Shown here in pieces: positions 21,198 to 23,008 of a stretch of 64,000 nucleotides of DNA. The stretch's first letter is position 1, and every line of letters begins with the position of its first letter. Source of the stretch: a virus; IMG/VR virus record IMGVR_UViG_3300025687_000001, positions 32,001-96,000 of that record, one strand, 5' to 3'. Both the position numbers and the translations under genes were made by a program. The notes below the pieces were generated by a model. The model searched no databases. It saw nothing but the letters and a program-made list of their open reading frames with translations, and was not told where the DNA came from.

Positions 21198-21878
21198 ATG
21201 GCTTTACCGGAGAACGGGATCCTGCACATCAAGGTCTATAAGGCCGCGACGCGCGGGATCCCGTTCGACCAGTTCTATTTAGTGCCGAAGACCGAGCGGG
21301 AACTTTTTAAGCGTGTGTTCCCCGCTTATGTCCGCACACAGTTCAACGATACTTTGTGGTCGCGCATTTTAGGCGTGGAAGTTAGCTCCGTGGCTAAAAC
21401 AGACACCACGGGCTACCACCGCAAGGAAACTCTGGACCCGCTGGCAACGCTGTCTGCACTTTGGCAGACCGAGCAGTGGCCTGAGGTGCATAGTCACTTC
21501 GACGTCGCAGTGCCCGTGGTCCTGCAGCACCCCAAAACCGTCCCCGATGAGCGCAACAACCCAATGAACGGCTCCGCGCGGCTGGGCTACTTAGTAGCCC
21601 GAGGGTGGCATCGGTCTAGAGCGGCTTCCCAGAGCCCGAAACTCGTCAACCGGCTTGACGCCGCCAACACGGTCTTCGTGGCTTACGGAGAAGAAGTGCG
21701 TCCGCTTTGTTTAGCGTGTCCTCGGCTACATGACGTACTGGACGGGCGTTGCTCGCTAGGAGATGACTACTGTCTCCGCACAATAGGCCTTGTGGGTAAG
21801 CCCACCTACCTCGCACGCTTGAAGGTCTACAAGGAAAGCGAAGATTTGGCGGAAGTTGCTTCCGCCTTCCCTGAATGA
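21198..21878 (+). CDS. Hypothetical protein coupled to the RT (C-terminal Cys cluster)
   Basis: ATGA overlap with the RT start; CLAC...C...C. Confidence 0.7.
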   Translation: MALPENGILHIKVYKAATRGIPFDQFYLVPKTERELFKRVFPAYVRTQFNDTLWSRILGVEVSSVAKTDTTGYHRKETLDPLATLSALWQTEQWPEVHSHFDVAVPVVLQHPKTVPDERNNPMNGSARLGYLVARGWHRSRAASQSPKLVNRLDAANTVFVAYGEEVRPLCLACPRLHDVLDGRCSLGDDYCLRTIGLVGKPTYLARLKVYKESEDLAEVASAFPE

Positions 21879-23008
21879 CAGCGTACAACCACACGCAGCT
21901 AGCCGTCCTAACCATCCCCACCGTACAACACAGCCTGCCTCCAGTAATGGATGACGTTTCCCTGGCGTACAGCCTCGGCATTCGTCCCAAGACTCTCTGG
22001 TGGGCTGTGTTCGGTGGGCGGGAGCTAGCTGGAACAGCTAAATCGACTTACACAAAGGGCGCCATCCTCAAGCGAGGGAAGGCGGGCTCACGTGGCGCAC
22101 TTCGCGCCATCCACGTCCCTGACTGGCGCGTCAAGAACATTCAGAAAGTCCTCTCTGCTGCCTTCGTGAAACCCATCCCTGTGGGAGACCACGTACGCGC
22201 GTACGAGCCGGGGGTAAAACCCCTGGACACCGCTGAAGCGATAGCAGGCAGCAAGATCCTGTGGTCCTTCGACCTAAAAAACTTCTTCGGGTCGATCCGA
22301 CTACCCTGGATCCGTGAGTACTACGAGAGTCTGGGGTACCCCAGGCAGGTGGCAAACCTCATTGGGCAGCTGTGCTGCGTCACTGACGTACACCCCTCTG
22401 GCAAAGGCAAAGTCAGGTTTTTGCCGCAGGGGACCGTCGTGAGCCCTGCACTAGCTAACCGAATCGCCGACCATCGCTTAGACCAGAGAATACTGACGTT
22501 GGCGCAGGCCAACGGCTGGTCTTACTACCGGTACTCGGACAACGTTTACATGGGGCACCCAGACCGTCTCAGCCGAGAAGAGGTAGACGCTTTCAAGGGA
22601 CAGGTATTTACCGCGGTGGGGCAGTCTGGTTGGCGCCACCACAAATCCCGAGTAGCCCTGTACTGGAACAGACAATCAGTGCTCGGCGCTGTCGTGAACG
22701 AAAAGCCAAACATGCCTTCTGACGAATACAAAGCACTGCGGGCTGCGGTCTACAACTGTCGCGTACATGGATTCTCGTCCCAAGTAGCCAAAGCTAGGCA
22801 GCGCTTCAAATCTTCGATTACCACTGATGAGCAACTCATCTCCCACTTGCGAGGACGGTTGGCCTACCTAAAGGCTCTCCTGTCCGAGGACAAGTACAAC
22901 AAATTGCACGATGATTTCTCCGCAGCCCTTGAGGCGCACCGGATTACGGTGCAGCGCAAGTGGCTGGAAGAAGACCTACAAGACGCACGCGATGCTGCCG
23001 GAACTTAA
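21875..23008 (+). CDS. Retron-type reverse transcriptase with atypical YSDN motif
   Basis: LAYSLGI, RAIHVP..KNIQ, FDLKNFFGSI, LPQGTVVSPALAN, YRYSDN, VLGAVVN and a thumb region LRAAVYN...LRGRLAY. Confidence 0.9.
   Translation: MTAYNHTQLAVLTIPTVQHSLPPVMDDVSLAYSLGIRPKTLWWAVFGGRELAGTAKSTYTKGAILKRGKAGSRGALRAIHVPDWRVKNIQKVLSAAFVKPIPVGDHVRAYEPGVKPLDTAEAIAGSKILWSFDLKNFFGSIRLPWIREYYESLGYPRQVANLIGQLCCVTDVHPSGKGKVRFLPQGTVVSPALANRIADHRLDQRILTLAQANGWSYYRYSDNVYMGHPDRLSREEVDAFKGQVFTAVGQSGWRHHKSRVALYWNRQSVLGAVVNEKPNMPSDEYKALRAAVYNCRVHGFSSQVAKARQRFKSSITTDEQLISHLRGRLAYLKALLSEDKYNKLHDDFSAALEAHRITVQRKWLEEDLQDARDAAGT

Follow-up and report, generated by a model that had tools for sequence, protein, structure and literature searches.

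Retrons are bacterial anti-phage systems composed of one reverse transcriptase (RT) with a YxDD box, one adjacent noncoding RNA (ncRNA), and an effector, and the YxDD box is nearly invariant among RTs. The virus record IMGVR_UViG_3300025687_000001 from IMG/VR contains an RT gene that does not follow this scheme. In the 64,000-nucleotide (nt) stretch of the record analyzed here (the window), the open reading frame (ORF) P0001 at positions 21875–23008 on the plus strand encodes a 377-residue protein, which is identified as a retron-type RT from its translation, profile matches, and predicted fold, and whose motif C reads Y-S-D-N. The locus thus raises the question of whether such an enzyme still synthesizes DNA, and on which template. 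A sequence-only reading of the window had offered two answers, an active divergent RT serving four remote ncRNAs, or an inactive, ncRNA-binding decoy that interferes with host retron defence. Our analysis favours the active divergent RT, because the catalytic residues are retained, new correlated invariant residues have appeared, and the Asp-Asn (DN) state of motif C is old and recurrent, whereas the anti-retron decoy finds no support. We consider the chances about evenly balanced that the protein is a catalytically competent RT with a remodelled active site, which copies remote ncRNA units.

Sequence profiles place the protein among the retron RTs. It matches the Pfam family RVT_1 above the cut-off (3.7e-15), with motifs A, B, D, and E present. 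In PADLOC, the three top models RT_other, RT_XIII, and RT_outgroup are tied at 3e-49 to 5e-49, and other retron types fill the lower ranks (retron models, 1e-49 to 1e-22); the 25 best matches include no model of the defence-associated RTs (DRT) or abortive infection (Abi) RTs. The NCBIfam models of the retron St85, TIR, and Ec67 RTs match at 1e-30 to 1e-34, although none reaches its equivalog cut-off. In addition, a profile of the clade searched against all PDB sequences finds Ec86 (1e-28), then Ec67, Kva2, Ec83, Ec78, and Eco8, with a group II RT as the first non-retron match (2e-5). The AlphaFold2 (AF2) model of the RT has a mean predicted local distance difference test (pLDDT) score of 91.3. 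When it is compared with the PDB by Foldseek, ranks 1–18 are all retron RTs, with Ec86 at an E value of 3e-21 and a target template-modelling (TM) score of 0.81, followed by the G2L4, diversity-generating retroelement (DGR), group II, and DRT RTs. The protein is therefore retron-type by overall sequence and predicted fold, in agreement with the earlier proposal of a phage-borne RT grouping with those of retrons.

Other identities were considered and rejected. The group II intron RT/maturase model TIGR04416 gives 33.7 bits against a cut-off of 300, and the window contains no Rfam intron match. An identity within the UG/Abi/DRT groups is opposed by the NCBIfam Drt2 score of 18.9 bits against a cut-off of 390, together with the PADLOC ranking. 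A DGR role is excluded because there is no pair of template and variable repeats; the longest match derived from the candidate RNA units (described below) elsewhere in the 95.5-kb record is at most 16 nt. Moreover, the DGR-clade RT reaches only Foldseek rank 21, with a query TM score of 0.48.

Within this retron-type framework, the RT misses three hallmarks of retrons, namely the His of the NAxxH motif, the DD pair, and the contiguous ncRNA (PMC6868368, PMC7736814). A script placed the motifs exactly where the sequence-only reading had put them, and the coordinates of motif D were computed from residue numbers; all lie on the plus strand. Motif C occupies residues 220–223 (22532–22543, codons TAC TCG GAC AAC) and is identical in 11/11 close clade members. 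Motif A, FDLKNFF (22268–22288), provides the catalytic D133 and the aromatic pair F137/F138, and motif B, PQGTVVSPALAN (22424–22459), contains PQG at 22424–22432 and SPALAN at 22442–22459. Motif D includes His256-Lys257 (22640–22645). Regions X and Y were located by HMMER alignment to the retron Ec86 RT; in retrons, the best-conserved residues of these regions are the His of NAxxH and the Gly of VTG. Region X reads TAEAI (22229–22243) where Ec86 has NATPH, so that only the Ala of NAxxH is kept, and many wider relatives retain the His as xTAxxH. Region Y reads VLG (22679–22687) in place of VTG; its Gly is invariant in 82/82 relatives, and the exchange of Thr for Leu extends throughout the phage family.

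The YSDN box is a genuine and conserved feature. An identical RT protein is encoded on all 15 contigs read (JGI, ENA, and Logan samples), which excludes a sequencing error, and RYSDN is present in 10/10 homologues at 45–66% identity, which excludes a private mutation. The conservation of YSDN, for which the sequence-only reading had called, is thus established, and YADD does not occur among these close homologues. The next relatives, at ~30% identity and mostly annotated as Actinomycetota "RT family proteins", carry RYADD or RYVDD. Megablast found no near-identical cultured phage, and the best tblastn match of the RT in 50,697 phage records (INPHARED) has ~25% identity, so no cultured phage is close.

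A profile search of 1.84 billion cluster representatives retrieved 937 proteins below 1e-30. Motif C was tallied in 205 proteins, made up of the best 150 of these 937 and earlier matches: 103 read YADD, 31 YVDD, 30 YSDN, 24 YSDD, and 7 YCDN. In a tree of 85 sequences from which the motif C columns had been removed, the window RT falls into a clade with 99% support, whose 20 representatives (50% clustering) all carry Y(S/C)DN. A further 11 DN proteins are scattered among DD proteins in other parts of the tree; four changes between D and N are needed by parsimony, and at least three are forced by the starred branches. In addition, the state of motif C tracks the phage lineage as judged from TerL: all 11 loci with a TerL at least 55% identical to that of the window are DN, and all 24 loci at or below 53% are DD. 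Taken across these sequences, the DN state appears to be old, recurrent, and selected rather than decayed.

The surrounding active site was compared in 31 DN and 51 DD members of the family, which conserve its catalytic and structural residues equally well. D133 and F138 are invariant in both sets. All 31 DN proteins also keep R77 of the finger, G186 of motif B, Y220, and D222; Q185 of motif B is kept in 30/31 and K257 of motif D in 28/31, and L270-G271 of motif E is kept as well. The aromatic pair of motif A, which RTs use to exclude ribonucleotides, is preserved in the RT. As a separate observation, motif A drifts within the DN clade (L031, L034, L035, L038, L039, and L041; loci of relatives are given L numbers) from DLKNFF to DFKNHF, DFVNHF, and DIVNFY.

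The DN state is accompanied by residues of its own. The residue preceding DN is Ser (25 proteins) or Cys (6 proteins) and never Ala, which is the commonest residue there in DD proteins. His256, directly before the motif D Lys, is found in 20/20 representatives of the window's clade, where DD relatives mostly have K, N, R, or E, and Tyr225, two residues past the Asn, is equally fixed (20/20). The region X His is lost in all 20 representatives, but the second DN group retains it, so the DN state is not tied to this loss. The comparison indicates that one old subclade has swapped the second catalytic Asp for Asn while keeping every other catalytic residue, and the active site of the DN clade looks remodelled rather than decayed. 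In right-hand polymerases, a residue other than the second Asp of motif C is the principal metal ligand, and mononegavirus polymerases, which are active right-hand palm enzymes with Asn at this second acidic position, function with GDN; an Asn in motif C is therefore chemically plausible. These enzymes are RNA-dependent RNA polymerases of an unrelated lineage, and the comparison speaks to chemical feasibility only. At its C-terminus, the RT possesses an extra long helix ending in an acidic tail (residues 338–377, window 22886–23005); W363, D367, and D370 of this extension are kept in the close clade, and it may be a protein-docking element.

No msr-msd adjoins the RT gene. The upstream gene g226 (226 residues, 21198–21878, plus strand) overlaps the RT start by 4 nt (ATGA) and is translationally coupled to the RT, and the downstream gene g549 (549 residues, 22992–24641, plus strand, with the start as called on public contigs, or 22911) shares at least 17 nt with the end of the RT gene. 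With an overlapping ORF on either side of the RT gene, a cis msr-msd cannot be accommodated, as had been noted from the sequence. The nearest candidate ncRNA units are located 9.4 kb upstream, where the 404-nt gap between the stop codons of PolA and TerL folds into three closed multi-hairpin units, for which no terminator-like sites are listed at 12079–12482. These units, delimited by an inverted-repeat scan alone, lie in tandem on the plus strand. U1 (12081–12199) begins with the arm a1 TCTAACTAA, followed by G and the conserved hairpin, and ends with CTTCG before the arm a2 TTAGTTAGA. U2 (12201–12355) has a1 TTGGGATA followed by G, and AAATCG before a2 TATCCCAA, and U3 (12359–12480) has a1 TTGAATCA followed by G, and again AAATCG before a2 TGATTCAA. 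The fourth, solo unit U4 (49781–49947, plus strand) is intergenic and has 10-bp arms, G after a1, and the hairpin GCTCTTG-TAA-CAAGAGC followed by AGT, with the promoter-like sequence TGGCATAAG 130 nt upstream. Of the four remote ncRNAs postulated earlier, the tandem units U1–U3 are secure and U4 is only probable, as about 1.7 chance detector matches are expected per strand of the window's genome.

Similar units occupy the same gap in relatives. The inverted-repeat scan finds one in L006 and three in L009; those in L007 (three) and L008 (two) come from a junction-motif scan. Among these nine units and U1–U4, the arms measure 6–10 bp and G directly follows a1 in 13/13 cases, preceded by A in 12/13; the triplet AGC, counted from the sequences, occurs in 7/13. 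The sequences of the arms, and of the stems too, all differ between units, while the constant elements are the G that follows a1 and the AAAT(T)CG (CTTCG in U1) that precedes a2. All units contain, in their 5′ third, a hairpin of 7 bp whose 3-nt loop is closed by G…C, in the pattern G-NNA-C; AGT mostly comes next, and long GC-rich hairpins after it. This hairpin is found in all units detected by their terminal repeats alone, independently of the pairing scan. A full-length MAFFT alignment of the 13 units is poor in the 3′ half, and the units have no match in Rfam.

Perfect 8-bp inverted repeats in tiles do not tell the gaps from coding controls, and this approach was replaced by a composite detector (arms of at least 7 bp, G after a1, a hairpin within 45 nt, and G before a2), applied to 80 terminase-anchored loci. 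It finds 85 units in 74.6 kb of TerL–PolA gaps in the PolA sense and 6 on the antisense strand of the same gaps, compared with 43 in 2.4 Mb of strand everywhere else (both strands) and 13 in 1.27 Mb of shuffled sequence. The units are thus enriched ~60-fold in the gaps, with a strong bias to one strand. On the window's genome, the detector recovers U1–U3, the solo unit, and two further matches that are probably due to chance. These patterns indicate that the units are existing RNA-like elements, and at the sequence level they are laid out as published for retron ncRNAs, which are defined by an inverted repeat and a priming G inside a conserved AGC (PMC6868368, PMC12475279).

Arrays of more distant subclades vary this theme. 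In L011–L016, AACGAAGT junctions are combined with GGCGTAACGCC hairpins. The RT-positive locus L090, with YCDD, contains ~9 stem-closed units of 90–110 nt at 11528–12750 on the minus strand (PolA-sense), which are separated by the conserved 13-nt linker AGACAGCAGTGCC and have a repeat-spacer look. Besides the units, the motif TGGYATAAG occurs five times in the window (0.43 expected), always on the plus strand (12910, 48742, 49641, 57563, and 62424), with one copy ~30 nt upstream of the tRNA-Thr gene and one 130 nt upstream of U4. TGGTATAAG or TGGTACAAG precedes the unit arrays in L006, L014, L016, L017, and L093. TGGYATAAG looks like an extended −10 phage promoter.

The RT behaves as a core gene of its phage lineage. 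The window is part of a 95.5-kb record estimated to be 60% complete, and the same phage is represented by longer contigs of up to 160 kb. On public contigs of this phage and its relatives the gene order is fixed. It starts with a primase-like gene with a DnaG Zn ribbon (5643–8957), PolA, the gap, TerL on the minus strand, and an ATPase (PHROG 1297), and continues with a helicase, two or three minus-strand genes, the DUF2201 metallopeptidase/VWA gene, the small ORF, the RT, and the large ORF. The order PolA, TerL on the minus strand, ATPase, DUF2201, small ORF, and RT is kept down to ~30% RT identity. A terminase profile identifies 248 relatives in IMG/VR, 80 of which were fetched for the locus analyses. 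The RT is present in 38/80; most of the others have too short an upstream flank to judge, and where that flank is complete, the RT is missing only from L089 and L091/L092, as confirmed by whole-record searches. The RT position in these loci is occupied by unrelated orphan ORFs. Pairwise identities of RT and TerL are correlated (Spearman 0.69). No relative above 31% identity emerged from a pattern-based scan that covered 185,579 prokaryote species with one genome each, and hence there is no sign of a lysogenic lifestyle in the scanned bacterial genomes. In these comparisons, the RT has the character of a core gene passed down vertically in an aquatic phage lineage that is uncultured and apparently non-lysogenic, unlike a mobile defence gene. 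The gene is not a patchy accessory, and the proposed decoy that interferes with host retron defence finds no support here. Salmonella phage Arash, which has the nearest cultured TerL (32%), was considered as an RT-less control and is of no use because it is not syntenic.

The genes flanking the RT are conserved with it. The DUF2201 metallopeptidase/VWA gene (19771–21195, plus strand), N4 gp25-like, is always directly upstream of the cassette of small ORF and RT. PHROG 1314 labels this protein 'HNH endonuclease', which looks like a mis-annotation. The ATPase (14047–15333) and the DUF2201 protein form a pair that is also kept in the lineage, and N4-like phage records annotate the latter as N4 gp25-like. 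The protein encoded by g226 carries a C-terminal C-x2-C-x10-C-x6-C motif, kept in at least 80% of the alignment rows, and has a positional homologue in 15/15 sampled loci; across the lineage, the small ORF measures 175–284 residues and is found in every subclade sampled. The large downstream ORF (443–660 residues) is always present, and g549 has eight Cys invariant over 13 diverse members, C110, C121, C125, C132, C289, C292, C299, and C307, which form two Cys4 clusters. No match was found for g226 in Pfam, PHROG, or PADLOC, or for g549 in Pfam or PDB sequences, and the neighbours scanned with PADLOC (g226 and the 22911 reading of the downstream gene), Pfam, NCBIfam, and informative PHROG models include no effector of a known class. 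ESM Atlas searches with both proteins returned only matches with TM below 0.4 from low-confidence models, word-index homologue searches returned almost nothing, and the AF2 model of g549, from a 13-row alignment, has a pLDDT of 43. In the RT-less L091, the segment past DUF2201 contains unrelated orphan ORFs, which is consistent with the Cys-rich proteins belonging to the RT module. Elsewhere in the window, 11 tRNA genes (Leu ×2, Val, Ala, Met ×2, Gln, Arg, Asn, Lys, and Thr) form one cluster on the plus strand at 59438–62531.

We infer polymerase activity, the pairing of the RT with the units, and priming from a 2′-OH, and the mechanism is drawn by analogy with retrons (PMC8632793). The cassette of the DUF2201/VWA protein, the Cys4 protein, the RT, and the double-Cys4 protein would be expressed in a translationally coupled manner, and the units would be transcribed with the primase-PolA operon, at its 3′ end, with U4 perhaps using its own promoter. 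The likely substrates would be the three tandem units at 12081–12480 and the probable solo unit at 49781–49947, in which the conserved 7-bp hairpin is a possible recognition element for the RT. The 2′-OH of the G after a1, which takes the position of the retron priming G, could serve as the primer. The RT would then copy the unit leftward from the G of AAATCG, with AAAT(T)CG as the first template bases, and one RT would generate several different RNA–DNA species resembling multicopy single-stranded DNA (msDNA) during infection. In the active site, the fixed His256, Tyr225, and Ser/Cys221 may compensate for the Asn.

Since the RT behaves as a core gene, a function needed by the phage is favoured, and a phage-beneficial role in counter-defence or host takeover is more likely than abortive-infection defence. 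A role as replicative primer-maker is unnecessary and not required, because a DnaG-type primase is present: the 1104-residue ORF at 5643–8957 contains a DnaG-type Zn ribbon, which is also found in four relatives, and is likely a primase-helicase; searches with the Prim-Pol and Toprim_4 models found nothing. PolA is located at 8908–12078, and on longer contigs the PolA product also contains a UDG domain. In its fullest form, our proposal is that of a phage-core, retron-derived system, in which the remodelled RT acts in trans on a fast-evolving tandem ncRNA array 9 kb away and yields an msDNA-like repertoire needed in infection for counter-defence or host takeover; we put this forward tentatively, as a possibility on the doubtful side.

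Several observations weigh against a competent RT that copies the units, and they are best considered together with the rival explanations. With respect to catalysis, the validated retron RTs cited are all DD (YADD, YCDD, and LVDD), and deletion of region X in the Ec86 and Ec73 RTs abolishes msDNA synthesis but not msr binding (PMC6868368). The DN clade is without the region X His as well as the second Asp of YxDD. Moreover, RTs of the DN clade are 27–36% identical where TerL is 55–57% identical, compared with 29–37% among DD phages whose TerL is only 45–53% identical; this faster divergence of the RT relative to TerL could reflect relaxed constraint. The phylogeny itself was built with FastTree only. 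These points would fit an RT that is polymerase-dead or strongly impaired, makes no DNA, and persists as an RNA-binding or scaffold subunit of a ribonucleoprotein (RNP) with the Cys-rich neighbours and perhaps the units. We regard this explanation as unlikely, given that the 31 DN representatives, across long branches, all have the Asp of motif A, the first Asp of motif C, Tyr220, and the Arg of the finger, and nearly all have Q185-G186 and the motif D Lys, none of which a pure binder would need. In addition, DN arose at least three to four times, only beside Ser or Cys, and the newly invariant H256 and Y225 point to a tuned catalytic site.

The link between the RT and the units meets objections of its own. 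The strict detector finds units in 22/36 RT-positive loci and none in 14/36; it finds them in 0/3 RT-negative loci, where independent RT-less phages are too few for significance, L089 and L091/L092 representing one evolutionary event. The proposed link is drawn from co-location in the lineage, in which functional coupling is inseparable from shared ancestry. A search of sequencing runs located the stretch in nine DNA metagenome runs and in no RNA run. The hairpins had been chosen by a pairing scan, which makes their covariation count (98.8% paired, 55 double-sided changes) circular. A further rival supposes that the RT is active on another template, or independently of a template, and that the gap units have nothing to do with it, being independent small RNAs, structures for processing or termination, or signals for packaging or replication. 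The units are indeed distant from the RT and lie between convergent genes, where terminators and tRNAs also occur: the TerL–PolA gap of the RT-less relatives holds ORFs (L089) or an ORF followed by a tRNA-like sequence with a tRNA-Ala-like anticodon loop (L091). Furthermore, the gap of some RT-positive phages is very short (103 nt in L084), and in some no unit is detected. We find this supposition distinctly unlikely in view of the defining retron layout of the units (a variable inverted repeat, the G after a1 mostly preceded by A, the inner hairpin, and the conserved sequence before a2), their strand bias of 85 to 6, and their want of the T-runs typical of terminators. The RT fold is nearest to retron RTs, which are RNA-templated and ncRNA-specific, and the two RT-less relatives are without units. 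A conventional retron defence carried by the phage for superinfection exclusion, with the Cys-rich neighbours as effectors restrained by msDNA, would agree with the existence of prophage-borne retrons and with the translational coupling of the RT to two conserved proteins, as retrons are tripartite systems of RT, ncRNA, and effector (PMC7736814). It appears very unlikely to us, since defence systems are usually patchy and located in variable hotspots, whereas this RT is fixed at one position and co-diverges with TerL while TerL diverges to 45%. Neither a known effector domain in the neighbours searched (PADLOC, Pfam, NCBIfam, and PHROGs) nor a close relative in the bacterial genomes scanned, and hence a sign of lysogeny, was found, and known retrons do not feature multi-unit ncRNA arrays.

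Among characterized systems, the Ec86 (Eco1) RT of type II-A (PDB 7v9u/7v9x) is the best match by both sequence profile and structure. The two share the palm/fingers/thumb layout, a retron-like N-terminal helix, and the region Y Gly, and the genome of the phage RT contains units with the a1/a2 inverted repeat and the G after a1. Ec86 has YADD, NAxxH, and VTG where the phage RT has YSDN, TAEAI, and VLG, and it has no equivalent of the ~50 extra C-terminal residues that form the long helix and acidic tail. Moreover, the candidate ncRNA of the phage is a tandem array of differing units 9.4 kb away rather than adjacent, the phage locus is without an NDT-type effector, and the gene is a phage core gene, not a gene of a bacterial defence island. 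Type XIII retrons (Mestre et al. 2020 clade 10, Mx162/Mx65) resemble the phage system in vertical inheritance and in the flanking Zn-finger and accessory proteins (PMC7736814). RT_XIII is among the top PADLOC models, but as three are tied, no specific assignment follows. In type XIII, the partner protein combines a DEDE motif and a winged helix with a SWIM CxCx12CxH finger, and the accessory proteins are of the HEAT/ARM kind, whereas the phage neighbours display C-x2-C-x10-C-x6-C plus two further Cys4 clusters and are without a Pfam match. Working retron RTs tolerate changes at the first two positions of the box, as in Ec107 (YCDD) and an E. coli RT (LVDD) (PMC6868368). Cys or Ser at the x position also occurs in the phage RT family; the Ec107 and LVDD variants keep both Asp, which the phage RT does not. 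In the searchable literature library, which is incomplete, we found no retron-type RT with a DN box (YSDN, YxDN), no phage lineage with a core retron-like RT, no tandem retron-like ncRNA arrays, nothing linking an RT with DUF2201 in phages, and nothing on the second aspartate of YXDD.

The lineage described here comprises large uncultured freshwater and estuarine phages with a retron-type RT as a fixed core gene. If the RT is active, the DD rule of RTs is not absolute, and the clade offers natural compensating substitutions (S/C221, Y225, and H256) for study. In that case, a single RT may also serve several trans-encoded templates, which would be relevant to retron-based tools for DNA production and editing. 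Were the RT inactive, a polymerase fold would have been kept as a core viral RNP subunit, of which few cases are documented. Either way, the units constitute a new family of structured RNAs without an Rfam counterpart. Should the reading of a phage-core system acting in trans prove true, retron chemistry would be used by viruses for offence, and not by cells for defence.

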